Source: Candidatus Marinacidobacterales bacterium
Lineage (GTDB): Bacteria; Acidobacteriota; Vicinamibacteria; Marinacidobacterales; SMYC01
Reading direction: 5' to 3'
Length of the DNA stretch: 64,000 nucleotides
NCBI GenBank assembly: GCA_965224085.1
Contig: CBDCYI010000005.1
Span: 224,001 to 288,000 of the forward strand
Made by a program: the position numbers and the translations under genes
Notes under the pieces: generated by a model
The model's input: only the letters and a program-made list of their open reading frames with translations
Told to the model about the DNA's origin: nothing
Database searches by the model: none
Shown here: piece after piece, positions 1,379 to 53,618 of the stretch
Layout of the letters: the number at the start of each line of letters is the position of its first letter
How positions within the stretch are numbered: position 1 is the stretch's first letter

Positions 1379-2290
1379 ATGCGTAACAAATATCTGTTGT
1401 TTCACGTCTTGGTCCTCTTGGCGGTTGGCGCCTCGGTCGCGCTCGCCCAGATGGGCACGGGGCGCATCAGAGGCTCGGCCGAGGACACCAACGGGCAGCC
1501 AATCGAAGGGGCGGTCATCACCGCGACGAGCGCGGACGGCAAAAAAACCCTGGAAACGACGAGCGGAAGCGACGGGAAATGGGCGATTCTTGGCTTCCGC
1601 TCCGGCATGTATGATCTCACCGTCGTCGCGGACGGCTTTATCCCGCAGGCCTACAAGCAACAGGTTAGCGGGTTCGGCCGCAACCCGACGATGGATTTCG
1701 TCCTCGAGCCGGTCGCGGAAGCGCCAAGCGGCGGTTCGATGCTCGTCGAAGCCAACGCGATGTTCGAGAACGGTCAGTATGAAGAAGCGTTGATAAAATA
1801 CGAAGCGTTCCTCTCCACCGAGCCGATGGCTTATCAGATCCATTACAACATCGGGGTCGTCTATGCCAGGCTGGAGGAATATGACAAGGCCGTCGAGTCC
1901 TACGAAAAAGTACTTGCCGCAGAGCCCATGCATAGCGGCTCGCTCATCGCGATCGGCGACGTCATGGTCCAACAGCAAAAGTACGACGAGGCCGTCGTCT
2001 ATTTCGAAAAAGCTATCGACCAGACGGAGGACGAGGTCGTCCCATTCAACGTCGCCGAGATCTATTTCAACCGCGGAGAGACCGACAGAGCGATTGAGCT
2101 CTACACCCTCGCGGCCGAGCGCAAACCCGACTGGCAGGACCCGCTCCTCAAGCTCGCCTACGCCAATTTGAACAAAGGTGATATGGACGCGGCAAAGACG
2201 GCACTCGAGGCCTGCGTCGCGGTCGCGCCAGACACGGTGGAGGGACAAACGGCGGCGCAGATGCTGCAGTCGCCGGCATTCGCTAACTAG
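1379..2290 (+). CDS. Secreted carboxypeptidase-regulatory-like domain + TPR repeat protein
   Basis: Signal peptide MRNKYLLFHVLVLLAVGASVALA; GRIRG..D.NGQPIEGA.I beta-sandwich motif; several TPR helices (YNIGVVYARLEEYDKAVESYEK). The TAG stop coincides with the IS terminus. Confidence 0.85.
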   Translation: MRNKYLLFHVLVLLAVGASVALAQMGTGRIRGSAEDTNGQPIEGAVITATSADGKKTLETTSGSDGKWAILGFRSGMYDLTVVADGFIPQAYKQQVSGFGRNPTMDFVLEPVAEAPSGGSMLVEANAMFENGQYEEALIKYEAFLSTEPMAYQIHYNIGVVYARLEEYDKAVESYEKVLAAEPMHSGSLIAIGDVMVQQQKYDEAVVYFEKAIDQTEDEVVPFNVAEIYFNRGETDRAIELYTLAAERKPDWQDPLLKLAYANLNKGDMDAAKTALEACVAVAPDTVEGQTAAQMLQSPAFAN

Positions 2291-2463
2291 TTCCTGTCCA
2301 GAAACACCATAACTTGTGGTGTACGAGAGGCCTATCGAAGATGTGGGTATTATACGTTTTCAGTCGGCACCTCGTAGGCTCGGAAGCGAATGAAAATCTT
2401 GGACGAAACGAGAGGCGAATCGTCAGCAATCCATGGCTATAAACGCAGTAAGAGTAATCATTA

Positions 2464-3828
2464 TTATCGTAATAGGTGCCTTGCCATTACCAACAGGTTG
2501 CAGGTGATGATGGAACTCCATACGTAGGATTTGAAAGAAGGCAATGAGCGCCATGTGCATCGGTCGAGACCAAAGACTCGTTTCAAGAACGAAATGACGC
2601 CTTCGATTCCGCAGCGAAATCGCCGTAGGCGTTGATAGACCCAGGAACTCTTGACCATATCGGTCACCGCGAAGTGAGCCTTGGTAAAGGCAACATCTTC
2701 AACTCCCTTGCCTTTGATGGCTTCCAAGTTTGCCTTTGAAGAAAACGCGCCATCGTAGGCAACCTGGCGCGGGGCCCGTTCGTAGAGTTCGACTTGACGG
2801 TCGATCATGGTTTCCGCGAGAGTTGAATCGGACGGATTCCCATCCAAGATCACGCAATCCAAAATCATCGAGGACGAGCCACCAGTCAAACACACCTTGT
2901 GACCGTAGAGAGTCTCGCGCCGGTCTTTGCGAATAATGTCGGTGTGTTCTTCGAAGATCGAAACGACCTTTTCCTCCGCAGGCACACGCTCTTCATCAAT
3001 CACTCTACGCCGAGTTTGGTTGATGACTTTTTCGGTGAGGACGAGAAAGTGCTTAAAATCCGCGGCGATCTTCTCCGCACTCGCTCGCTTCACCGGCTCG
3101 GTCAAGCCGGACTCGTCCAACTGGTCTGCAACGCGTTGAGCGGAGCGATAGGTTTCTTCCGACACCTTCAGTAGATCTCGATAGACGCGACGCCTTTGTT
3201 CCTTATCCTTCGCGTTTAGAACTCCCAGTCGACGTCTCTTCGCTCGACGCGTTCGATTGCCGAAGACCACTACTGTACCCAGCAGTTCGCGAGTTCGGCA
3301 CATGAGGCGAGTGAGAACTCGGACGCAGTCATAAAGAAGCTCGGAGTCCGTAGGAGAATGAATATTCGACTCCACTACCGTGCAGTCCACTCGTACTTTT
3401 CTTCCTTTTTCGATCGCGGTCTTCTCGGCAACACTCACCAACTCTCGGTTGATTTTCTCCAGCGTTTCGAACTTCACGGCTTTGATGTTTGCTGCTAGGG
3501 TCGACTTCGACGGGCTCGGCTCTATGATGCCGAGCTGGCAAAACGTCCGATAGCTTCGAGAGTCTGCCAAGTGAAACGCCAGCTCCCGATAGGTGAACTG
3601 ATTCAGCTGCTTGACCAACAACGCCCGGAGAACCTGCTCCGCGCTCATTCCCCCACGACCAACATCGCTCCCTGCCGATGGGGTGACCGACCTCAGGTCT
3701 TGCAGTACCAGCTCATTGAGCTTAGGATGGGCATCGAGCAGCGATGATATCGTTTCGAGCTCGCGTGCGTGCTCCAGCTCCAGCCAGGGCTCGCGAAGGC
3801 TTGGTTGTGGGTTGATCGTTTTTCGCAT
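2464..3828 (-). CDS. DDE transposase (DUF772-like N-terminus + DDE core; IS5/ISNCY type)
   Basis: Motifs VRVDCTVVESNIHSPTDS, YGHKV, YDGAF, R.GIEG.IS.LKR.FGL.RC; RBS AAGGAG upstream. Confidence 0.92.
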   Translation of the reverse strand: MRKTINPQPSLREPWLELEHARELETISSLLDAHPKLNELVLQDLRSVTPSAGSDVGRGGMSAEQVLRALLVKQLNQFTYRELAFHLADSRSYRTFCQLGIIEPSPSKSTLAANIKAVKFETLEKINRELVSVAEKTAIEKGRKVRVDCTVVESNIHSPTDSELLYDCVRVLTRLMCRTRELLGTVVVFGNRTRRAKRRRLGVLNAKDKEQRRRVYRDLLKVSEETYRSAQRVADQLDESGLTEPVKRASAEKIAADFKHFLVLTEKVINQTRRRVIDEERVPAEEKVVSIFEEHTDIIRKDRRETLYGHKVCLTGGSSSMILDCVILDGNPSDSTLAETMIDRQVELYERAPRQVAYDGAFSSKANLEAIKGKGVEDVAFTKAHFAVTDMVKSSWVYQRLRRFRCGIEGVISFLKRVFGLDRCTWRSLPSFKSYVWSSIITCNLLVMARHLLR

Positions 3829-3923
3829 TTAGGGCTGGTCTCCTTTGGAGTTAAGTCGTTTAGAATCTGCGTTTTTGTCGACTCGATACTAAACGACACT
3901 CCCTCAGAAGGCTAGCCCTAAAT
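3827..3923 (-). promoter_or_regulatory. Long hairpin covering the transposase RBS and start codon (also at 5517-5613)
   Basis: Nested complementary pairs ATTTAGGGCT/AGCCCTAAAT, GGAGT/ACTCC and GTCGTTTAG/CTAAACGAC enclose AAGGAG and the ATG. Confidence 0.6.
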
Positions 3924-3977
3924 TTGCGATTACCCCTTTTTTCTCAACCTCTTACACCTGTCAGGACGGGTACTAAC

Positions 3978-5665
3978 TAGTTCCTGTCCAGAAACACCAT
4001 AACTTGTGGTGTACGAGAGGCCTATCGAAGGTGTGGGTATTATACGTTTTCAGTCGGCACCTCGTAGGCTCGGAAGCGAATGAAAATCTTGGACGAAACG
4101 AGAGGCGAATCGTCAGCAATCCATGGCTATAAACGCAGTAAGAGTAATCATTATTATCGTAATAGGTGCCTTGCCATTACCAACAGGTTGCAGGTGATGA
4201 TGGAACTCCATACGTAGGATTTGAAAGAAGGCAATGAGCGCCATGTGCATCGGTCGAGACCAAAGACTCGTTTCAAGAACGAAATGACGCCTTCGATTCC
4301 GCAGCGAAATCGCCGTAGGCGTTGATAGACCCAGGAACTCTTGACCATATCGGTCACCGCGAAGTGAGCCTTGGTAAAGGCAACATCTTCAACTCCCTTG
4401 CCTTTGATGGCTTCCAAGTTTGCCTTTGAAGAAAACGCGCCATCGTAGGCAACCTGGCGCGGGGCCCGTTCGTAGAGTTCGACTTGACGGTCGATCATGG
4501 TTTCCGCGAGAGTTGAATCGGACGGATTCCCATCCAAGATCACGCAATCCAAAATCATCGAGGACGAGCCACCAGTCAAACACACCTTGTGACCGTAGAG
4601 AGTCTCGCGCCGGTCTTTGCGAATAATGTCGGTGTGTTCTTCGAAGATCGAAACGACCTTTTCCTCCGCAGGCACACGCTCTTCATCAATCACTCTACGC
4701 CGAGTTTGGTTGATGACTTTTTCGGTGAGGACGAGAAAGTGCTTAAAATCCGCGGCGATCTTCTCCGCACTCGCTCGCTTCACCGGCTCGGTCAAGCCGG
4801 ACTCGTCCAACTGGTCTGCAACGCGTTGAGCGGAGCGATAGGTTTCTTCCGACACCTTCAGTAGATCTCGATAGACGCGACGCCTTTGTTCCTTATCCTT
4901 CGCGTTTAGAACTCCCAGTCGACGTCTCTTCGCTCGACGCGTTCGATTGCCGAAGACCACTACTGTACCCAGCAGTTCGCGAGTTCGGCACATGAGGCGA
5001 GTGAGAACTCGGACGCAGTCATAAAGAAGCTCGGAGTCCGTAGGAGAATGAATATTCGACTCCACTACCGTGCAGTCCACTCGTACTTTTCTTCCTTTTT
5101 CGATCGCGGTCTTCTCGGCAACACTCACCAACTCTCGGTTGATTTTCTCCAGCGTTTCGAACTTCACGGCTTTGATGTTTGCTGCTAGGGTCGACTTCGA
5201 CGGGCTCGGCTCTATGATGCCGAGCTGGCAAAACGTCCGATAGCTTCGAGAGTCTGCCAAGTGAAACGCCAGCTCCCGATAGGTGAACTGATTCAGCTGC
5301 TTGACCAACAACGCACGGAGAACCTGCTCCGCGCTCATTCCCCCACGACCAACATCGCTCCCTGCCGATGGGGTGACCGACCTCAGGTCTTGCAGTACCA
5401 ACTCATTGAGCTTAGGATGGGCATCGAGCACCGACGAGATCGCTTCGAGCTCGCGCGCGTGCTCCACCTCCAGCCAGGGCTCGCATAGGCTTGGTTGTGG
5501 GTTGATCGTTTTTCGCATTTAGGGCTGGTCTCCTTTGGAGTTAAGTCGTTTAGAATCTGCGTTTTTGTCGACTCGATACTAAACGACACTCCCTCAGAAG
5601 GCTAGCCCTAAATTTGCGATTACCCCTTTTTTCTCAACCTCTTACACCTGTCAGGACGGGTACTA
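3978..5665 (-). mobile_element. IS5/ISNCY-type insertion sequence, copy 2
   Basis: Direct repeat of 2288-3975 with the same IRs and a few SNPs; 2-bp AC between adjacent IRs. Confidence 0.9.
4154..5518 (-). CDS. DDE transposase, copy 2
   Basis: 454 aa; identical to copy 1 except four substitutions in the first 30 residues. Confidence 0.92.
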   Translation of the reverse strand: MRKTINPQPSLCEPWLEVEHARELEAISSVLDAHPKLNELVLQDLRSVTPSAGSDVGRGGMSAEQVLRALLVKQLNQFTYRELAFHLADSRSYRTFCQLGIIEPSPSKSTLAANIKAVKFETLEKINRELVSVAEKTAIEKGRKVRVDCTVVESNIHSPTDSELLYDCVRVLTRLMCRTRELLGTVVVFGNRTRRAKRRRLGVLNAKDKEQRRRVYRDLLKVSEETYRSAQRVADQLDESGLTEPVKRASAEKIAADFKHFLVLTEKVINQTRRRVIDEERVPAEEKVVSIFEEHTDIIRKDRRETLYGHKVCLTGGSSSMILDCVILDGNPSDSTLAETMIDRQVELYERAPRQVAYDGAFSSKANLEAIKGKGVEDVAFTKAHFAVTDMVKSSWVYQRLRRFRCGIEGVISFLKRVFGLDRCTWRSLPSFKSYVWSSIITCNLLVMARHLLR

Positions 5666-5667
5666 AC

Positions 5668-6572
5668 TAGTTCCTGTCCAGAAACACCATAACTTGTGGT
5701 GTACGAGAGGCCTATCGAAGATGTGGGTATTATACGTTTTCAGTCGGCACCTCGTAGGCTCGGAAGCGAATGAAAATCTTGGACGAAACGAGAGGCGAAT
5801 CGTCAGCAATCCATGGCTATAAACGCAGTAAGAGTAATCATTATTATCGTAATAGGTGCCTTGCCATTACCAACAGGTTGCAGGTGATGATGGAACTCCA
5901 TACGTAGGATTTGAAAGAAGGCAATGAGCGCCATGTGCATCGGTCGAGACCAAAGACTCGTTTCAAGAACGAAATGACGCCTTCGATTCCGCAGCGAAAT
6001 CGCCGTAGGCGTTGATAGACCCAGGAACTCTTGACCATATCGGTCACCGCGAAGTGAGCCTTGGTAAAGGCAACATCTTCAACTCCCTTGCCTTTGATGG
6101 CTTCCAAGTTTGCCTTTGAAGAAAACGCGCCATCGTAGGCAACCTGGCGCGGGGCCCGTTCGTAGAGTTCGACTTGACGGTCGATCATGGTTTCCGCGAG
6201 AGTTGAATCGGACGGATTCCCATCCAAGATCACGCAATCCAAAATCATCGAGGACGAGCCACCAGTCAAACACACCTTGTGACCGTAGAGAGTCTCGCGC
6301 CGGTCTTTGCGAATAATGTCGGTGTGTTCTTCGAAGATCGAAACGACCTTTTCCTCCGCAGGCACACGCTCTTCATCAATCACTCTACGCCGAGTTTGGT
6401 TGATGACTTTTTCGGTGAGGACGAGAAAGTGCTTAAAATCCGCGGCGATCTTCTCCGCACTCGCTCGCTTCACCGGCTCGGTCAAGCCGGACTCGTCCAA
6501 CTGGTCTGCAACGCGTTGAGCGGAGCGATAGGTTTCTTCCGACACCTTCAGTAGATCTCGATAGACGCGACG
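5668..6572 (-). mobile_element. IS5/ISNCY-type element, truncated copy 3 (transposase C-terminal half only)
   Basis: Identical to copies 1/2 from the IR at 5668 to ...ATAGACGCGACG at 6572, then switches abruptly to GWxTD gene sequence; no second IR. Confidence 0.9.
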
Positions 6573-25768: not shown

Positions 25769-27433
25769 ATGGATCCCGTAACTCGCAGCGTTATTGGCTA
25801 CGCCATGAACGCTATCGCCAAAGAGATGGGCGTGAACCTCTACCAGGCGGCCCACTCCACCATCGTTCGGGAAATCCGTGACATCGGTACGGCCATCTTC
25901 GACGCCGAAGGCCAGACCGTGGCGATGGCTCACTGGATTCCCATGCTTTCCAATGCCCTGGAGCCGGGCATGCAGGCCGCCATGCGGCACTATGACATCA
26001 GAGCCCTGCAACCCGGCGAAGCACTGTTGACGAACGACCCTTTCGATGGTGGGCAGCACGTGAACGACATTCTCCTATTCACGCCCATCCACTTCGCCGG
26101 CCGAGTCATCGCCTATGCCTGTGCCAGCGCTCATCACCTTGATGTAGGCGGTGCGGCACCCGCCTCCTACGCCGGAGCCACCGACGTATATCAAGAAGGT
26201 ATTGTGTTCCCCCCGATAAAAGTCGATCTGGGAGGGAACTGGACGGAAAGCGTCTTCGGCAAGATCTTCCAGGCAAATATACGCGCACCGGACAAGTCCA
26301 TTCCTGACTTTGACGCTCAGATTGCCGCTTGCCGCACCGGCGATAGGCGCATCCTCGCCCTGATCGAGAAATACGGCGTTGACACTATTCAGGATTTCAT
26401 GAAGGAGATCGAGGTGTATTCCGAGCGGGTAACCCGCGCGTCTATTGCCGAGATCAGAGACGGTGACTATCACGGTGAAGCGTACATGGAAGACGACGGG
26501 ACCGGCTCCGGTGGACCTTTCACCATTCGGCTTGCGGTGCGCGTAAGAGGGGACGAGCTGGTGGTGGATTTCAGTGGCACCGACCCTGAGGCCTCCGGTT
26601 TCATCAACATCCCCCTGGCATCCACCTACTCGACGGTTCGCACGACGATCATATCCATCCTTGGCATCGAGCTTCGCCACGTCAGCGCCGGAGCCTTCCG
26701 GCCCATCAGGCTCGAGACACCTCTGGGAACCCTGGTGAATCCCAGACGTCCGGCTGCCACCCGTGCCCGCACCAGCACATGCTACAGGATTTTCGATGCG
26801 ATCAACCTTGCCCTGGCGCCGGTCTTGCCCCACCAGGTGGCGGCGCCGGGTTTCGATAGCCAGACAGGCGTCTCGTTCGCCTACCGGAGCGAAGAGGGCA
26901 TCGCCATTCTCAGTGAGGCGATAGGCGCCGGTAATGGAGGCATGTACAATCAGGACGGTGCTGACGGTATGATCATGCACCTGACCAACGCCACCAACAC
27001 CCCAGTAGAAGCGGTCGAGATCGAATTTCCCTTTCTAGAAGTGCTTCACTACCGCCTGGTCAAAGACAGTGGCGGTCCTGGCAAGTTCCGGGGGGGGATG
27101 GGCATCGAGCGAGCCTTTCGCACGAGGGCGGGAGGTGTGACCTTCGGCCTTCATTCTGATCGCCATCACCACAGTGCCCCCGGGCTTTTTGGCGGCCACT
27201 CTGGCGCCTCCGGTCAGTGCGCCGTGGTTCGCGAAGGCAAGGAAGAGGTATTGGGATCCAAGGTGCACACCACGCTCAACAAAGGCGATATCCTGACCGT
27301 TCGCACGGGCGGAGGGGCAGGCTATGGCCTACCGGAAGAGCGGGACCCCCAGCGGATCCTCCAGGACCTGCGTGAAGATAGAATCTCTCAGGAAGCCGCT
27401 CTCCTGTATGAGCACTTACCTCGCGAGAGCTAA
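25769..27433 (+). CDS. Hydantoinase B / oxoprolinase C-terminal subunit
   Basis: NDPFDGGQHVND, HHLDVGG, VDFSGT, NTPVEAVE, DSGGPGKFRGG, TGGGAGYG. Confidence 0.95.
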   Translation: MDPVTRSVIGYAMNAIAKEMGVNLYQAAHSTIVREIRDIGTAIFDAEGQTVAMAHWIPMLSNALEPGMQAAMRHYDIRALQPGEALLTNDPFDGGQHVNDILLFTPIHFAGRVIAYACASAHHLDVGGAAPASYAGATDVYQEGIVFPPIKVDLGGNWTESVFGKIFQANIRAPDKSIPDFDAQIAACRTGDRRILALIEKYGVDTIQDFMKEIEVYSERVTRASIAEIRDGDYHGEAYMEDDGTGSGGPFTIRLAVRVRGDELVVDFSGTDPEASGFINIPLASTYSTVRTTIISILGIELRHVSAGAFRPIRLETPLGTLVNPRRPAATRARTSTCYRIFDAINLALAPVLPHQVAAPGFDSQTGVSFAYRSEEGIAILSEAIGAGNGGMYNQDGADGMIMHLTNATNTPVEAVEIEFPFLEVLHYRLVKDSGGPGKFRGGMGIERAFRTRAGGVTFGLHSDRHHHSAPGLFGGHSGASGQCAVVREGKEEVLGSKVHTTLNKGDILTVRTGGGAGYGLPEERDPQRILQDLREDRISQEAALLYEHLPRES

Positions 27434-27462
27434 CCACTACGGCCAGACCGTGAGCTCGGTTA

Positions 27463-27501
27463 ACCATGAAATATTAACATGCGATATTAATATTTCATGG
27501 T
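27463..27501. repeat. Perfect 15-bp AT-rich inverted repeat with 9-nt spacer
   Basis: ACCATGAAATATTAA-catgcgata-TTAATATTTCATGGT, 12 bp outside the left end of the integrase/IS91 element. Confidence 0.85.
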
Positions 27502-27608
27502 AAATAAAACCTCTTGAACTAAGCCGCTCGCGCGGCGGCGGGACCTGCAAGCTCTCCCGAACTGGTGAGCCAAACTGGGGGCATTTTGCCTGCGCCTTTT
27601 TCGCCGCA

Positions 27609-27879
27609 GCCCATCGCCCTTCCAGGGAATCACGGCGCGCAGGTCGTGTCAAGGGTTTCGCGCGCTTCGCGCGCCGCTGGAAATGTTGGATTGGCTGGGG
27701 CAGTGCGGGTTGCACGATTGCTGCGCCGCCCTGGAGGTTGCGCGAGACGCGGTGTTCGGCACGGCCACGAGCGAATTGCTGGAAATGTTGGATTGGCTGG
27801 GGCGCGGTTGCACGATTGTAGCTGCGCCGCCCTGGACACGACCTACGCGCCGTGATGCGAGTCACTATGGGCGATGGGC
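27609..27879. repeat. Long stem-loop in the element leader, with a 144-bp loop insertion containing two ~60-bp direct repeats
   Basis: Outer stem GCCCATCGCCC/GGGCGATGGGC; inner stem ATCACGGCGCGCAGGTCGTGTCAAGGG/CCCTGGACACGACCTACGCGCCGTGAT; repeats at 27676-27735 and 27778-27836. Confidence 0.85.
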
Positions 27880-28157
27880 GGACGGGTGCCTCCGGCAGGG
27901 GCTCCGGACTCCGGGTTTTGCACGGCAAGCCAGCCGCGGTGAACTCACTCGCCTCTAACCCGTTTCCCTTGTTTTTCCGGGCCACGGGAGCCAGAAGGGA
28001 TTAAGGAGGACGGCTTCGCCGTCGTCTTCATTCGTTCGATCTTCGCTCCGGACAACGAGTCCTGCGTTTCTCGGAACCGCTCTCTCACACATGGCATCAT
28101 CCCTGTCCCCCGCGGGCGGCGATGGTCGTCGTCTGCTAAATCACTGGAGGAATAATC

Positions 28158-29018
28158 ATGGGATGCCTTAGCGAAAAAATGCTTGCCGACATGAAACTGA
28201 AGGGGTTCGCACGCTCCACGCAGGAGGAGTATCTGCTGCGAGCGCGCCATTTCGCGGCACATTACATGCGCTCACCCGCCGAGATGGGCGAGCCGGAGAC
28301 CCGCGATTATCTGATTCATCTCGTTAACGAGAAGAAGGCCTCTCCGGCCAGCCACCACATGTACGTCGCCTCTCTCAAGTTTCTCTACGCAACCACACTC
28401 AACCGCCCGGAGGAGGTGGCGAAGATTCCTTGGCCCAAGAAACCTCGAACGTTACCCGATATCTTGAGCGGCGAGGAGGTCGATTGTTTGCTTCACTCCG
28501 TTCACTCCGTCAAACACCGCGCGATTCTCATGAGCGCCTACGGCGCCGGGCTGCGCGTTTCCGAGGTGTGCTGTCTGAAGCACTCCGACATCGACTCCAA
28601 ACGCATGCTCTTGCACATTCGTCACGCCAAGAACTCCAAGGCCCGCTATGTCACGCTCAGCGAACGTTTGTTGAGCTTCCTGCGCTACTACTGGAAAACC
28701 ACTCGCCCTCGCGGAGAGTACTTGTTTCCCGGCCGTAATCCTGGTGCCCACATCTCAGACGATGGCGTTCGCTGGGCTCTTCGTAAGGCCGTGGCTGAGG
28801 CGGGGCTCACCAAACGTATCACTCCTCATTCGCTGCGCCACGGTTTTGCCACACATATGCTCGAACTGGGTGAAGACATTCGTACCGTGCAGCAACTGCT
28901 CGGTCATGCCTCCATCCAGACCACGGCCCGTTACACAAAGGTAACAGCAAAGCACTTGGGGCGCATCAAGAGCCCTCTCGATTTGCTGGGAACGAAGAAG
29001 GGCAAAAAGCTCGGCTAG
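28158..29018 (+). CDS. Tyrosine recombinase (phage integrase family)
   Basis: YGAGLRVSE (R), AKNSKAR (K), HSLRH (HxxR), LLGHAS (H), TTARY (Y); RBS GGAGG. Confidence 0.96.
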   Translation: MGCLSEKMLADMKLKGFARSTQEEYLLRARHFAAHYMRSPAEMGEPETRDYLIHLVNEKKASPASHHMYVASLKFLYATTLNRPEEVAKIPWPKKPRTLPDILSGEEVDCLLHSVHSVKHRAILMSAYGAGLRVSEVCCLKHSDIDSKRMLLHIRHAKNSKARYVTLSERLLSFLRYYWKTTRPRGEYLFPGRNPGAHISDDGVRWALRKAVAEAGLTKRITPHSLRHGFATHMLELGEDIRTVQQLLGHASIQTTARYTKVTAKHLGRIKSPLDLLGTKKGKKLG

Positions 29019-29024
29019 CTCATC

Positions 29025-30272
29025 ATGCAGCCCCATGGGCTGTGTCCTTCCCGCGTCGAGTCACCACCACGGCCACTGCTCGAGATCGCGGAAATCTTCC
29101 GCGAACATGGTCCACGCTTTCGCCAAACCCATGCGCTGACAGCCGAGCAGCGCAAGGTGATGTGGGCTATAGAGAACTGTCGCACGGCGGTGCTAGGTGG
29201 CCATCTCGACGTGTGTAACGCTTGCGGATACGCGGCGCCTTCGTTTAACTCGTGCCGCAATCGGCACTGTCCCAAGTGTCAGAGCCTAGCCCAGGCGAAG
29301 TGGATGGAGCAGCGAGCTCAGAGGATTCTTCCGACTCACTATTTCCACGTCGTTTTCACCCTCCCGCAGCAACTCAAGCCTCTCGCCCGAGACAATCCCA
29401 AGTTCATGTTCAACCTCCTGTTTCGCGCCGCCTCGCGAACTCTATTGGAGTTCGGCCAAAGCCGGCTCGAAGCTCAACTTGCCTTCACCGCCGTACTGCA
29501 CACCTGGACCCGGAAGCTCCTGTTCCATCCACACCTGCATTGCATCGTCTCCGGGGGCGGGCTCAACCACCCTCAGCAGCTGTGGAACGCCGCAAACCCT
29601 CGCTTTCTGTTTCCCGTCAAGGCCATGTCGCGGCTTTTTCGCAGCAAGTTTCTCGATGCCCTTAGGCTCGCTTACGACCAAGATGAGCTTGAGTTGAGCG
29701 CAAACGCTTCCCACCTCAGAAACCCACCTCGCTTCCGGGAGCTGAAAGACAAGCTCTACCGCATCGATTGGGTCGTTTACAGCAAACGACCCTTCGGTGG
29801 CCCAGAGCAGGTTTTCAACTACCTCGGCCGATATACCCACCGGGTCGGCATCTCCAACCGCCGACTCATTCGCATCGACCACTACGGCGTCTGCTTCGCC
29901 ACCAAGAATGGTAATACCGTTACCGTCCCCCCAGAGGAATTTATCCGCCGTTTCCTCCTGCACGTACTGCCGAAAGGTTTCGTCAAGATTCGCCATTTCG
30001 GCTTAATGGCCTCCTCCAATGCGACCACCAAGCTCGTAGTCGCGCGCCAGTTGCTCGATGAGAAAACAAAACCCACGACCGACGCCGACGACGTGCAAGT
30101 CAGCTCGCGTGCCACCGAGGACAAGGACTGGCGCGAGCGGCTCAAGGAGCTCACCGGCATCGACCTCACCATCTGTCCCCGCTGCAAGAAAGGTCGCATG
30201 CTCCGATGCCCTCTCTCCACGAAGCTTCGACGGATCAACCTCCAGATCCGCTCCCCTCCAGATGAGTCATGA
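29025..30272 (+). CDS. IS91-family rolling-circle transposase (Zn-binding + Y2 HUH)
   Basis: CRTAVLGGH, SCRNRHCPKC, YFHVVFTLP, LHTW, HPHLHC (HUH), YLGRYTHR (Y2), RRFLLHVLP.GF.KIRHFG. Confidence 0.96.
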   Translation: MQPHGLCPSRVESPPRPLLEIAEIFREHGPRFRQTHALTAEQRKVMWAIENCRTAVLGGHLDVCNACGYAAPSFNSCRNRHCPKCQSLAQAKWMEQRAQRILPTHYFHVVFTLPQQLKPLARDNPKFMFNLLFRAASRTLLEFGQSRLEAQLAFTAVLHTWTRKLLFHPHLHCIVSGGGLNHPQQLWNAANPRFLFPVKAMSRLFRSKFLDALRLAYDQDELELSANASHLRNPPRFRELKDKLYRIDWVVYSKRPFGGPEQVFNYLGRYTHRVGISNRRLIRIDHYGVCFATKNGNTVTVPPEEFIRRFLLHVLPKGFVKIRHFGLMASSNATTKLVVARQLLDEKTKPTTDADDVQVSSRATEDKDWRERLKELTGIDLTICPRCKKGRMLRCPLSTKLRRINLQIRSPPDES

Positions 30273-30646
30273 TCACGATGCTTTCGCTCCGCCTCTCACA
30301 ACGCCGACCGGTCGTTGAAACGGACTCGTGTGTCTCGTCGCGAACTCATAACGCTACCGTGGTGGTTACCGCACCGGGTAGGCCCTTCTTCTATCTTCCC
30401 CGCCATATCTCTGTCGATTCGCAACTCCCTGACGTCCAACTCCGACTTCCTGTCCGACCGTCTTCTCACTCCAATTTATGCATAGTTGCCGCTAGCTGGG
30501 CGGCTTAGTTCAATTACGGTTTGCACGAATGCTCGCTCTACAAGCATCGTGCCTCGCGTAACGCCGTGCTTCGCTCGATTCCTGCAAACCGCTATTAATT
30601 TCTCGGAAAGTGCCAGACCATTCCTTGATTAAATCATGTCTACTCC

Positions 30647-42793: not shown

Positions 42794-42799
42794 ATTGAA

Positions 42800-43339
42800 G
42801 TGAACAACCACCGCCTAGAAGGCGGTGGCTTCAAGGGCTGTCAATTGGAAATTGACTGTCGTCGTGAAGAGGCTCGCCATCCTGGGAGTCTATGTACTCC
42901 TTTACCATCTCGTCCGTTATGCTTCCTGAACTCACCGCCAGATATCCTCGGGCCCAGAAGTGCCGGCCCCAAAACTTCTTCCTCAGGTGAGCAAACTCCT
43001 GAAGGAGTACTCGGGAGCTTATTCCTTTTAGCCACTGCACGATCGTACTCAGGTCCTGGTGTGGTCGGTAGGATACGAACACGTGGACGTGGTCGCGTGC
43101 AACCTTACCCGAGATTATGTGCAGCTCATGTTCCATCGCGATCTGACGAATCAGATCGCGCACACGAACCGCTACTGGACCGATCAAAACCTTTTTACGA
43201 TATTTCGGTATCCAAACGATGTGCGCTTTTAGGTCCGTTTTCGTGTGCGCTCCGTGCCTGTAGTGACGCACGCGACCACAATACCACGATCTTCTCTTCG
43301 CCTAAAGGCGAGGGGTTTCGACCATCCCCGGAAGAGACA
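42800..43339 (-). mobile_element. IS200-type (tnpA-only) insertion sequence
   Basis: Subterminal hairpins CCACCGCCTAGAAGGCGGTGG and CTTCGCCTAAAGGCGAGG; right end ...GTTCAC; inserted 3' of TTAG with no target duplication. Confidence 0.9.
42831..43271 (-). CDS. tnpA: IS200/IS605-family Y1 HUH transposase
   Basis: HIVWIPKYRKKVL, DHVH (HUH), LKGISSR, FWARGY, EYIDSQ (catalytic Tyr). Confidence 0.96.
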   Translation of the reverse strand: MRHYRHGAHTKTDLKAHIVWIPKYRKKVLIGPVAVRVRDLIRQIAMEHELHIISGKVARDHVHVFVSYRPHQDLSTIVQWLKGISSRVLLQEFAHLRKKFWGRHFWARGYLAVSSGSITDEMVKEYIDSQDGEPLHDDSQFPIDSP

Positions 43340-43834
43340 CTAAGCCGCTCGCGCGGCGGCGGGACCTGCAAGCTCTCCCGAACTGGTGAGCCAAACTGGG
43401 GGCATTTTGCCTGCGCCTTTTTCGCCGCAGCCCATCGCCCTTCCAGGGAATCACGGCGCGCAGGTCGTGTCAAGGGTTTCGCGCGCTTCGCGCGCCGGCT
43501 GCGCCGCCCTGGACACGACCTACGCGCCGTGATGCGAGTCACTATGGGCGATGGGCGGACGGGTGCCTCCGGCAGGGGCTCCGGACTCCGGGTTTTGCAC
43601 GGCAAGCCAGCCGCGGTGAACTCACTCGCCTCTAACCCGTTTCCCTTGTTTTTCCGGGCCACGGGAGCCAGAAGGGATTAAGGAGGACGGCTTCGCCGTC
43701 GTCTTCATTCGTTCGATCTTCGCTCCGGACAACGAGTCCTGCGTTTCTCGGAACCGCTCTCTCACACATGGCATCATCCCTGTCCCCCGCGGGCGGCGAT
43801 GGTCGTCGTCTGCTAAATCACTGGAGGAATAATC

Positions 43835-44695
43835 ATGGGATGCCTTAGCGAAAAAATGCTTGCCGACATGAAACTGAAGGGGTTCGCACGCTCCACGCAG
43901 GAGGAGTATCTGCTGCGAGCGCGCCATTTCGCGGCACATTACATGCGCTCACCCGCCGAGATGGGCGAGCCGGAGACCCGCGATTATCTGATTCATCTCG
44001 TTAACGAGAAGAAGGCCTCTCCGGCCAGCCACCACATGTACGTCGCCTCTCTCAAGTTTCTCTACGCAACCACACTCAACCGCCCGGAGGAGGTGGCGAA
44101 GATTCCTTGGCCCAAGAAACCTCGCACGTTACCCGATATCTTGAGCGGCGAGGAGGTCGATTGTTTGCTTCACTCCGTTAACTCCGTCAAACACCGCGCG
44201 ATTCTCATGAGCGCCTACGGCGCCGGGCTGCGCGTTTCCGAGGTGTGCTGTCTGAAGCACTCCGACATCGACTCCAAACGCATGCTCTTGCACATTCGTC
44301 ACGCCAAGAACTCCAAGGCCCGCTATGTCACGCTCAGCGAACGTTTGTTGAGCTTCCTGCGCTACTACTGGAAAACCACTCGCCCTCGCGGAGAGTACTT
44401 GTTTCCCGGCCGTAATCCTGGTGCCCACATCTCAGACGATGGCGTTCGCTGGGCTCTTCGTAAGGCCGTGGCTGAGGCGGGGCTCACCAAACGTATCACT
44501 CCTCATTCGCTGCGCCACGGTTTTGCCACACATATGCTCGAACTGGGTGAAGACATTCGTACCGTGCAGCAACTGCTCGGTCATGCCTCCATCCAGACCA
44601 CGGCCCGTTACACAAAGGTAACAGCAAAGCACTTGGGGCGCATCAAGAGCCCTCTCGATTTGCTGGGAACGAAGAAGGGCAAAAAGCTCGGCTAG
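43835..44695 (+). CDS. Tyrosine recombinase, copy 2
   Basis: Same as 28158-29018 except one H/N substitution. Confidence 0.96.
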   Translation: MGCLSEKMLADMKLKGFARSTQEEYLLRARHFAAHYMRSPAEMGEPETRDYLIHLVNEKKASPASHHMYVASLKFLYATTLNRPEEVAKIPWPKKPRTLPDILSGEEVDCLLHSVNSVKHRAILMSAYGAGLRVSEVCCLKHSDIDSKRMLLHIRHAKNSKARYVTLSERLLSFLRYYWKTTRPRGEYLFPGRNPGAHISDDGVRWALRKAVAEAGLTKRITPHSLRHGFATHMLELGEDIRTVQQLLGHASIQTTARYTKVTAKHLGRIKSPLDLLGTKKGKKLG

Positions 44696-44701
44696 CTCAT
44701 C

Positions 44702-45949
44702 ATGCAGCCCCATGGGCTGTGTCCTTCCCGCGTCGAGTCACCACCACGGCCACTGCTCGAGATCGCGGAAATCTTCCGCGAACATGGTCCACGCTTTCGC
44801 CAAACCCATGCGCTGACAGCCGAGCAGCGCAAGGTGATGTGGGCTATAGAGAACTGTCGCACGGCGGTGCTAGGTGGCCATCTCGACGTGTGTAACGCTT
44901 GCGGATACGCGGCGCCTTCGTTTAACTCGTGCCGCAATCGGCACTGTCCCAAGTGTCAGAGCCTAGCCCAGGCGAAGTGGATGGAGCAGCGAGCTCAGAG
45001 GATTCTTCCGACTCACTATTTCCACGTCGTTTTCACCCTCCCGCAGCAACTCAAGCCTCTCGCCCGAGACAATCCCAAGTTCATGTTCAACCTCCTGTTT
45101 CGCGCCGCCTCGCGAACTCTATTGGAGTTCGGCCAAAGCCGGCTCGAAGCTCAACTTGCCTTCACCGCCGTACTGCACACCTGGACCCGGAAGCTCCTGT
45201 TCCATCCACACCTGCATTGCATCGTCTCCGGGGGCGGGCTCAACCACCCTCAGCAGCTGTGGAACGCCGCAAACCCTCGCTTTCTGTTTCCCGTCAAGGC
45301 CATGTCGCGGCTTTTTCGCAGCAAGTTTCTCGATGCCCTTAGGCTCGCTTACGACCAAGATGAGCTTGAGTTGAGCGCAAACGCTTCCCACCTCAGAAAC
45401 CCACCTCGCTTCCGGGAGCTGAAAGACAAGCTCTACCGCATCGATTGGGTCGTTTACAGCAAACGACCCTTCGGTGGCCCAGAGCAGGTTTTCAACTACC
45501 TCGGCCGATATACCCACCGGGTCGGCATCTCCAACCGCCGACTCATTCGCATCGACCACTACGGCGTCTGCTTCGCCACCAAGAATGGTAATACCGTTAC
45601 CGTCCCCCCAGAGGAATTTATCCGCCGTTTCCTCCTGCACGTACTGCCGAAAGGTTTCGTCAAGATTCGCCATTTCGGCTTAATGGCCTCCTCCAATGCG
45701 ACCACCAAGCTCGTAGTCGCGCGCCAGTTGCTCGATGAGAAAACAAAACCCACGACCGACGCCGACGACGTGCAAGTCAGCTCGCGTGCCACCGAGGACA
45801 AGGACTGGCGCGAGCGGCTCAAGGAGCTCACCGGCATCGACCTCACCATCTGTCCCCGCTGCAAGAAAGGTCGCATGCTCCGATGCCCTCTCTCCACGAA
45901 GCTTCGACGGATCAACCTCCAGATCCGCTCCCCTCCAGATGAGTCATGA
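44702..45949 (+). CDS. IS91-family transposase, copy 2
   Basis: Protein appears identical to 29025-30272. Confidence 0.96.
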   Translation: MQPHGLCPSRVESPPRPLLEIAEIFREHGPRFRQTHALTAEQRKVMWAIENCRTAVLGGHLDVCNACGYAAPSFNSCRNRHCPKCQSLAQAKWMEQRAQRILPTHYFHVVFTLPQQLKPLARDNPKFMFNLLFRAASRTLLEFGQSRLEAQLAFTAVLHTWTRKLLFHPHLHCIVSGGGLNHPQQLWNAANPRFLFPVKAMSRLFRSKFLDALRLAYDQDELELSANASHLRNPPRFRELKDKLYRIDWVVYSKRPFGGPEQVFNYLGRYTHRVGISNRRLIRIDHYGVCFATKNGNTVTVPPEEFIRRFLLHVLPKGFVKIRHFGLMASSNATTKLVVARQLLDEKTKPTTDADDVQVSSRATEDKDWRERLKELTGIDLTICPRCKKGRMLRCPLSTKLRRINLQIRSPPDES

Positions 45950-46491
45950 TCACGATGCTTTCGCTCCGCCTCTCACAACGCCGACCGGTCGTTGAAACGG
46001 ACTCGTGTGTCTCGTCGCGAACTCATAACGCTACCGTGGTGGTTACCGCACCGGGTAGGCCCTTCTTCTATCTTCCCCGCCATATCTCTGTCGATTCGCA
46101 ACTCCCTGACGTCCAACTCCGACTTCCTGTCCGACCGTCTTCTCACTCCAATTTATGCATAGTTGCCGCTAGCTGGGCGGCTTAGTTCAATTACGGTTTG
46201 CACGAATGCTCGCTCTACAAGCATCGTGCCTCGCGTAACGCCGTGCTTCGCTCGATTCCTGCAAACCGCTATTAATAATGTTGGCGCCTAGGGTCGTGCC
46301 TGGTTCGAGCCTCATGTTAACCGGTGGGCCGTTGGATGCGAGTCATCATTCTAGCACCGGGACGCGGATCCCCTGTCGTATGGCCCCCTCGCTGCCGTAG
46401 ATGAGAGTCTCCCACGCTTCCAGCGTTCTCGATGCCACGGATTTGTGCTGCACCATCCTGTCTTTGCGTCTGAAAAATGTAACTACCGCTA

Positions 46492-53129: not shown

Positions 53130-53618
53130 ACCATCGCCGCCCGCGGGGGACAGGGATGATGCCATGTGTGAGAGAGCGGTTCCGAGAAACGCAGGACTCG
53201 TTGTCCGGAGCGAAGATCGAACGAATGAAGACGACGGCGAAGCCGTCCTCCTTAATCCCTTCTGGCTCCCGTGGCCCGGAAAAACAAGGGAAACCGGTTA
53301 GAGGCGAGTGAGTTCACCGCGGCTGGCTTGCCGTGCAAAACCCGGAGTCCGGAGCCCCTGCCGGAGGCACCCGTCCGCCCATCGCCCATAGTGACTCGCA
53401 TCACGGCGCGCAGGTCGTGTCCAGGGCGGCGCAGCCGGCGCGCGAAGGTCGTGCAGGGCGGCGCAAAGCGCGCGAAACCTTGACACGACCTGCGCGCCGT
53501 GATTCCCTGGAAGGGCGATGGGCTGCGGCGAAAAAGGCGCAGGCAAAATGCCCCCAGTTTGGCTCACCAGTTCGGGAGAGCTTGCAGGTCCCGCCGCCGC
53601 GCGAGCGGCTTAGTTCAA
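53130..53618 (-). mobile_element. Solo non-coding leader of the integrase/IS91 element (copy 3, inverted, no ORFs)
   Basis: Reverse complement of 27514-28126 apart from the loop; ends in GCGGCTTAGTTCAA at 53605-53618. Confidence 0.9.

Follow-up and report, generated by a model that had tools for sequence, protein, structure and literature searches.

A leader hairpin of an IS91-like element as a probable single-stranded DNA hotspot of template switching and IS110 insertion

IS91-family elements with an upstream tyrosine recombinase, which form an integron-like TR subgroup (10.1101/542381, PMC5714925), are the closest described relatives of the element analysed here. As far as the covered sections of these papers go, the likeness lies in the Y2 transposase with its zinc domain, the recombinase gene upstream of it, the absence of a target duplication and a left-end motif, which is common to 8 other recombinase+Y2 elements. 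However, the leaders of these 8 relatives are ~130–215 nt long, compared with 496 nt here, and within this group the hairpin module described below is found only here.

The hairpin itself is comparable to the Frpo/ssi promoters and sso signals. In Frpo, a folded single strand serves as a promoter (PMC9849209, PMC11541004, PMC12672017), and at an sso a primer is made on the single strand (PMC5714925). In the parts of these sources that were covered, single-stranded DNA (ssDNA) promoters are described for conjugative plasmids (PMC9849209, PMC11541004, PMC12672017); none in insertion sequences was found in the literature searched. The module resembles these signals in that a long stem-loop forms on one strand, a −35-like box lies in the stem, the −10 position lies at the bubble and the orientation would allow transcription of the downstream genes of the element. 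It differs in that it resides in insertion sequences and MITEs, that the −10 is weak in copy 1 and that both boxes are collinear on one arm. The phage G4/ssiA origins and N4 vRNAP promoters (PMC13037366, covered in part) also contain one-strand GNA triloops closed by C–G with a variable middle base; compared with those mini-hairpins, the module has two such loops, a three-way junction and a 50-bp stem.

Three further systems bear on the differences in the loop. Half-match insertion and single-stranded circles have been published for IS621 (10.64898/2026.08.31.748434), and top-strand insertion together with single-stranded circles is reported for IS110 elements (10.64898/2026.08.31.748434, 10.1101/2025.10.25.684509). 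As in such off-target events, a mini-element is found here where only the left arm and the core of the target match; in contrast, internal IS110 pieces without a donor junction, as in copy 1, are undescribed in the sections covered of these two sources. Palindrome-associated mutation by microhomology-mediated template switching, of which reverse transcriptase (RT)-mediated MMEJ in bacteria is an example (10.1101/2022.03.14.484287, covered in part), is alike in its short microhomologies, repeated switches and small deletions, and in the deletion of the hairpin from one copy; compared with palindrome-associated templated insertions, the present case is a natural bacterial one with a distant template. 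Finally, REP/RAYT and SRM/Ssn hairpin–nuclease pairs, as described in the covered part of PMC11893778, also involve dispersed ssDNA hairpins, sometimes on both sides of a nuclease-like gene, but the module is ~130 nt long and its association with a DUF222-like gene is rare (3/30).

The hairpin lies in the window, that is, the whole stretch of 64,000 nucleotides analysed here. We consider it probable, at about 70%, that its tip is an ssDNA hotspot of breakage and template switching with an IS110 half-target in the left arm, and that the loop differences are scars on a portable, perhaps Frpo/sso-like module.

The host element and its leader hairpin

The element and its copies in the window are as follows.

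27516–30600, plus strand: copy 1 of the IS91-like element (tyrosine recombinase and Y2 transposase), ends ambiguous by 1–2 T
28158–29018, plus strand: tyrosine recombinase, Xer/integron-like (PF00589, PF13495)
29025–30272, plus strand: IS91-type Y2 transposase (PF04986, E 6e-55; PF14319)
42799–43338, minus strand: IS200-like element (Y1_Tnp), inserted after TTGA in the left end of copy 2
43339–46276, plus strand: copy 2, full-length, with the plain (majority) loop; hairpin at 43430–43556
53130–53616, minus strand: copy 3, left-end fragment without genes; hairpin at 53377–53523

The element encodes the HUH Y2 transposase by which the IS91 family is recognised. At the left end, its minus strand terminates in GTTC, presumably the ter motif that the transferred strand carries in the IS91 family. 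Copies 1 and 2 are both complete and differ by 2 SNPs over 2779 bp, and copy 3 is a 486-bp fragment that stops at element position 465 (53130). The near-identity over ~2.4 kb outside the loop, which the first-pass annotation had assigned to all three copies, therefore holds for copies 1 and 2 and not for the fragment. There is no target duplication at copy 1: an empty site in runs X1 and X3 joins 27515 to 30601, which also reveals the site as polymorphic. A second haplotype of the copy 1 left flank is present in the same two runs besides the empty site.

Several other features surround the element. A 14-bp inverted repeat of the left end (27514–27527) lies ~88 bp inside the right end (46178–46191 in copy 2) and is followed there by an attC-like fold. 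IS200-like elements are inserted after TTGA in both inverted repeats, at 3 left ends and 2 right ends. Immediately to the left of copy 1 is an AT-rich palindrome (27460–27504), and palindromic flanks occur at several other insertion sites. A second, small leader hairpin (43666–43706, element positions 328–368) is terminator-like on the plus strand and recurs ~10 times in another genome (G031), away from any element. Elsewhere in the window, 2283–6572 is a head-to-tail array of a 1690-bp DDE/DUF772 IS with two full copies, and a third copy of this IS forms an in-frame fusion to a GWxTD-domain gene.

The leader hairpin is laid out as follows.

27609–27879, minus strand: hairpin module of copy 1, with outer stem, internal loop, 27-bp inner stem and Y-shaped apex
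27624–27629, minus strand: −10-position hexamer TTCCCT at the edge of the internal loop, weak and without A at position 2
27647–27653, plus strand: TGTCAAG, left half of the target of the resident IS110, complementary to the −35-like TTGACA on the minus strand
27664–27670, minus strand: first apex mini-hairpin, GCGAAGC
27677–27820, plus strand: templated insertion of 144 bp in copy 1, made of IS110 pieces and a host re-copy
27821–27827, minus strand: second apex mini-hairpin, GCGCAGC, landing point of both returns from IS110
53448–53468, minus strand: self-templated 21-nt insertion in copy 3

The outer stem of 11 bp is formed by arms at 27609–27619 and 27869–27879, and the inner arms of 27 nt (27629–27655 and 27830–27856) pair with two mismatches. 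The earlier description of an 11-bp outer and a ~27-bp inner stem was right in its coordinates, and so was its account of the three loops: copy 2 has a short loop of 30 nt, copy 3 a self-derived duplication (21 nt inserted, 1 nt deleted) and copy 1 an insertion of 144 bp (27677–27820). The stems, which it called conserved, do vary somewhat: the right arm carries SNPs at element positions 179, 184 and 191 in 6, 3 and 1 of 12 copies, respectively.

The minus strand is likely the folded strand of the module. In an alignment of 16 sequences, 90.7% of cells pair and 14 of 43 pairs are changed on both sides, a level reached in 0 of 500 shuffles and compared with ~40% in slid controls, with the relatedness of the aligned sequences inflating these covariation and conservation figures. 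Read on the plus strand, the mismatches comprise 1 G–T cell versus 12 C–A/A–C and 26 T–C/C–T cells; on the minus strand, the same cells are G–T wobbles and G–A pairs, and the loops are GAA, GTA and GCA. Within the element, 8 GCGNAGC motifs lie on the minus strand and none on the plus strand; according to the part of PMC13037366 that was covered, such motifs are far more stable in DNA than in RNA and are found at ssDNA priming sites and N4 promoters. A stable, conserved stem-loop on one strand, as in Frpo, ssi and sso signals, is thus present (z −4.8). DNA folding energies are lower for the minus strand in 12 of 16 sequences, by small margins that do not clearly separate the strands, and the strand assignment is based on mismatch types and triloops, not on these energies. 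We read the module as folded minus-strand ssDNA. A structured RNA, as proposed in the first-pass annotation, is less likely than ssDNA in view of the plus-strand mismatch types, the minus-strand GNA triloops and an Rfam covariance-model search that gave no match on the hairpin and one chance-level hit elsewhere. The ssDNA origin proposed alongside it is plausible and is retained within our preferred reading.

Loop variants and the source of the inserted DNA

The hairpin tip is a real insertion hotspot in this assembly, and the loop is normally constant. There are 13 left ends of the element in the genome, one of which has lost the hairpin by a deletion of positions 59–384. Eight of the 12 hairpin-bearing left ends have the plain loop (5 with GGG and 3 with GG), and the other four carry insertions of 21, 55, 138 and 144 nt at positions 148, 130, 135 and 160, respectively, each variant being a singleton. 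An additional 9-bp insertion is located at position 81, 11 bp left of the hairpin. The loop had been called hypervariable, an impression that arose because the window holds 2 of the 4 loop variants of the genome; with 8 of 12 copies plain, it is a sampling effect. The hairpin contains 4 insertions of at least 5 bp in 12 × 127 bp, compared with 14 in 540,958 bp of 31 other repeat families, and the Poisson probability of such clustering is ~1e-7 for a region picked post hoc. Insertions longer than ~400 bp were left out of both the hairpin and the background counts, and some of the 14 background events are reference-specific or edge effects, retained as a conservative choice. The source of the inserted DNA is in every case either the leader or a single IS110 family, and the loops differ by scars that arose independently, without programming, on the same wild-type loop.

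This bears on the idea that the leader acts as a guide RNA, or as a site of spacer acquisition, with a loop that is reprogrammed, and that copy 1 took up IS110 as a guide or antisense against an attacking IS110. The repeated 16-nt host piece that flanks IS110 coding sequence in copy 1, and a second short IS110-like insertion nearby in another copy, would suit such a site. However, eight of 12 copies at differing sites have the same loop save one G (three of them share an adjacent IS200 end), and in a comparison covering 300 bp upstream of 12 copies and the right flank of copy 1, the longest words common to loop and flank are 6–12 nt and the loops match their own flanks no better than those of other copies; the sole excess is a 12-nt word located in an IS200 flank. 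The inserts are scrambled, range from 21 to 144 nt and lie at four different positions, so that no variable segment of fixed length or place in the scaffold exists. The structure is of the DNA type rather than the RNA type and belongs to no Rfam family, and relatives keep the apex as two mini-hairpins. A reprogrammable guide, which the first-pass annotation had suggested, is therefore hardly credible. In RNA runs, only 5–12% of the sequence words looked for were present.

The IS110 donor has DEDD RuvC-like and IS116/IS110/IS902 domains (PF01548, PF02371). Its left flanks end in TGTCAAG in 17 of 19 cases, and most of its right flanks start with TT, belonging to a TTG-rich right half that is absent from the leader. 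TGTCAAG, the left-half word only, is repeated at position 110 of the left non-coding end of IS110. At C11:397356, the loop insert is a 138-nt mini-derivative of the resident IS110 joined exactly at the AG core of TGTCAAG; it is a true IS110 mini-element insertion at a half-matching target. At C5:1631248, the duplication represents a jump back within the leader from TGTCAA and a return to the same TGTCAA. In copy 3, the path runs from the tip of the first mini-hairpin to that of the second, with a 2-nt deletion, and then jumps back. The sequences of copy 3 and C5:1631248 identify both as microhomology-mediated template switches within the leader, and candidate enzymes are suggested by the genome, which encodes Ku and 2 LigD and gives 22 RT hits. 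RTs of the group II intron type are able to anneal microhomologies, according to the covered part of 10.1101/2022.03.14.484287.

The insert of copy 1 consists of IS110 positions 370–413, a 16-nt re-copy of the host loop (27720–27735) and IS110 positions 321–417, in this order. Its IS110 pieces derive from the coding region of the donor and differ from it by five small indels; the junctions show microhomologies of 1–4 nt, and both returns land on host position 160. All of the IS110 pieces are sense on the plus strand, as expected if the 3′ end of the minus strand copied a sense single strand or mRNA. Outside copy 1, the genome contains no short internal pieces of IS110 (E<0.05). The insertion lies 23 nt from the half-site, and sequence no more than 30 bp away from such a site accounts for 0.44% of the genome; the resident IS110 makes up 0.2%. 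An origin of this insert as the remnant of a full IS110 insertion was considered and rejected, since the host sequence runs on without a break through the AG core and the insert contains no IS110 end. The 9-bp insertion at position 81 may also come from IS110: an 11-mer spanning it occurs 11 times in the genome, 9 of them within this IS110, which is suggestive only.

The same IS110 (L001, G000:C9:13661-15151) is frequent in the ends of other IS elements. Its 138-nt mini-derivative is multicopy, its target half is complementary to a sigma-70 −35 box, and the TGTCAAG/TTGAC word opens repeat family F169. At G000:C4:496080-496420, IS110 mini-elements form a scrambled tandem that contains small deletions, which likewise points to error-prone copying in connection with this IS110.

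A portable module in other elements and genomes

The hairpin is a portable module common to IS3-type elements, MITEs and other mobile elements and is not a core part of recombinase+Y2 elements. When 41 relatives were searched at the DNA level, 12 genomes (own included) had matches, centred on leader positions 92–256, and 0 of the module-bearing loci from other genomes have a YR or Y2 hit. In relatives, and once also in the own genome, the module lies just 3′ of an IS3-type transposase (rve). It is also carried by MITE-like units (225 and ~330 bp) and flanks DUF222/HNH-like genes (a weak Pfam hit, E 0.015) on one side or both. Among 120 further genomes from the phylum, a covariance model detects it in 5, and four of these five distant hits adjoin IS21 istB, HTH/rve transposase or integrase genes, one of them with RadC. 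The same model gave no match in the 8 other recombinase+Y2 elements, which come from 7 genomes.

The apex also varies in these carriers. In G010, a 19-bp apex duplication is common to 3 of 20 IS3-type copies, and one copy has an arm rewritten from the opposite arm. In G003, a 12-bp apex deletion is present at 3 MITE loci, and another unit has lost the apex. Apex variants common to separate loci must have been inherited. The enrichment of events is much weaker in G010 (2 multi-base events in 20 × 125 bp of hairpin versus 2 longer insertions in the remaining 26 kb) than in the present genome, which fits an extra contribution of the IS110 half-site here. Because IS3-type and MITE carriers lack a Y2 transposase and their hairpins mutate nonetheless, rolling-circle copying is not required. 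Template switching during rolling-circle copying, as originally proposed, is thus upheld for the switching, which is seen in copy 3, copy 1 and C5:1631248 and does not have to involve a rolling circle, since a DDE element of the IS3 type mutates likewise.

Further searches added little. A metagenome scan with the left arm found 2 loci, both inside a coding gene and without the hairpin; a viral scan gave 2 chance hits only; BLAST of two module versions against 72,556 plasmid records gave no match; and a protein-seeded search of genome contigs returned 3 distant, uninformative recombinases. None of the conclusions draws on the unpublished genome G089. No report of the module was found in the literature searched, supplements excepted.

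The DUF222/HNH-like genes form a multicopy family in 18 of 19 genomes of the family, with up to 35 matches each at 50–78% identity. This family was considered as the main mobiliser of the module and rejected, since only 3 of 30 loci carry the module or a remnant. The 225-bp MITE with TGTTGTTT ends (L110, L121–L130; G002, G003, G010) carries a diverged hairpin, often has 5-bp target duplications and is present in many dozens of copies in G003.

Candidate function, mechanism and competing explanations

To our knowledge, second-strand formation and gene expression of the single-stranded or copied-out intermediates of IS91- and IS3-type elements are poorly settled. The features of the module suggest, with somewhat less than even chances, an Frpo/sso-like ssDNA signal, acting as a promoter and/or a second-strand primer. 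TTGAC is present on the 3′ arm of the folded strand in 13 of 17 lineages, and the −35 is perfect in copy 1. On the minus strand, 15 of 17 lineages have, after a spacing of 16 nt and at the internal loop, a hexamer with T at position 6 (2/17 on the plus strand), the remaining two having a spacing of 17 nt. The −10 hexamer has A at position 2 in 6 of 17 lineages and mostly C at position 5, and a sigma-70 scan of the copy 1 −10 gave 0 sites. A single-stranded minus strand would fold to give a duplex −35 and a −10 bubble. RNA polymerase would then use the 5′ arm as template to produce plus-sense RNA from ~27866–27872 towards the recombinase, and this RNA could express the recombinase and transposase genes in sense, prime synthesis of the second strand, or do both. 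With the same layout in the IS3-type element, the transcript would run antisense to the transposase. A comparison with Frpo, ssi and sso, published supplementary sequence lists aside, revealed no plasmid match, and the context is one of IS elements and MITEs, not a conjugative leading region.

The main rival to a promoter or priming function accepts the scars as described above and regards the hairpin as a functionless, selfish REP/MITE-like passenger, perhaps spread by the DUF222/HNH-like family. Its occurrence in the 225-bp and ~330-bp MITE-like units, the inverted modules flanking both ends of a DUF222-like gene in 2 loci and the loss of the hairpin from one element copy agree with a passenger. 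However, the fourth hit among the 30 DUF222/HNH-like loci is an inserted MITE, leaving three with the module or a remnant, and the module is absent from both own-genome loci of this family that were tested. Moreover, it has neither constant ends nor a target duplication and lies nearly always inside mobile elements (4/5 distant hits). A passenger without host role is somewhat unlikely on this evidence.

In the preferred reading, in which the tip is a site of breakage and template switching, the insert of copy 1 most likely goes back to breakage at the second mini-hairpin. Repair would have been carried out by an error-prone polymerase, for which LigD and a group II intron RT are both encoded candidates, and this enzyme would have copied a piece of IS110 on two occasions. 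Its template was probably a single-stranded circle of IS110, retained at the half-site in the course of an abortive insertion, or else IS110 mRNA. Whether this insert is linked to an IS110 synapse is an even bet, and tethering of IS110 at the hairpin half-site is an assumption, the leader being without the TTG-rich right half. It is unlikely, though conceivable, that the module is a portable ssDNA promoter or priming cassette traded among IS91-type, IS3-type and IS21 elements and MITEs and that copy 1 is also the footprint of an abortive IS110 insertion whose circle was captured as a repair template. The loop variability represents an ordinary process, hairpin instability together with IS110 off-target activity, with one striking scar.

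The enzymes of the element itself might instead cut the apex, either by a Y2 nick at an AAV-like Y-shaped hairpin or by attC-like use of the recombinase, with variants arising from rolling-circle copying. The breakpoints of copies 1 and 3 do lie at the two triloops, minus-strand mini-hairpins occur at both element ends too, and the recombinase is Xer/integron-like. Against this, the element ends map elsewhere, the module is missing from the 8 other recombinase+Y2 elements and it is present, and mutating, in elements without YR or Y2, which makes such cutting very improbable. It is also improbable that the strong hairpin led to an error in sequencing, amplification or assembly and that the copy 1 insertion, perhaps along with that of copy 3, is such an artefact. 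Contigs of 4 of 22 listed runs (three studies) over 26900–28400 show the plain loop only, with 27677–27751 uncovered and no junction contig, and the variants are singletons; the GG/GGG and copy 3 loops are likewise unlisted. Since contigs collapse even variants present in one third to one half of the copies, absence of the copy 1 insert from them is expected and is no evidence. GCGNAGC motifs are known to disturb Sanger sequencing (PMC13037366, covered in part), and the five indels, small deletions in short repeats and homopolymers among them, resemble long-read basecalling errors, a pattern that fits polymerase slippage equally well. A single-copy junction at a depth of ~25–35 between repeats at a depth of 170–390 is a path that such contigs tend to lose. 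Other observations speak for real events: outside the insertion, copy 1 shows 2 differences over 2779 bp, SNPs are common to several copies, and this contig contains no intact copy of the donor piece, unlike in local amplification chimeras. In addition, the junctions show microhomology with the same base hit by both returns, the mini-element insertion is exact, and inherited apex variants occur in independent assemblies.

A shared, covarying hairpin would provide a concrete candidate signal, with a predicted start site, for the intermediates of IS91- and IS3-type elements. The scrambled IS110 pieces beside a half-target, if truly derived in this way, would be a natural by-product of failed bridge recombination and would bear on the fidelity of IS110 editing. 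As a separate observation, the leaders of the DUF222/HNH-like genes (L188–L217; in the own genome C11:1186906-1187979, L191) contain two conserved boxes ~170 nt apart, a T-run with TTGACA and an A-run with TGCTATAA. The sequence between the two boxes is variable, and they could form a split promoter joinable by folding or excision.
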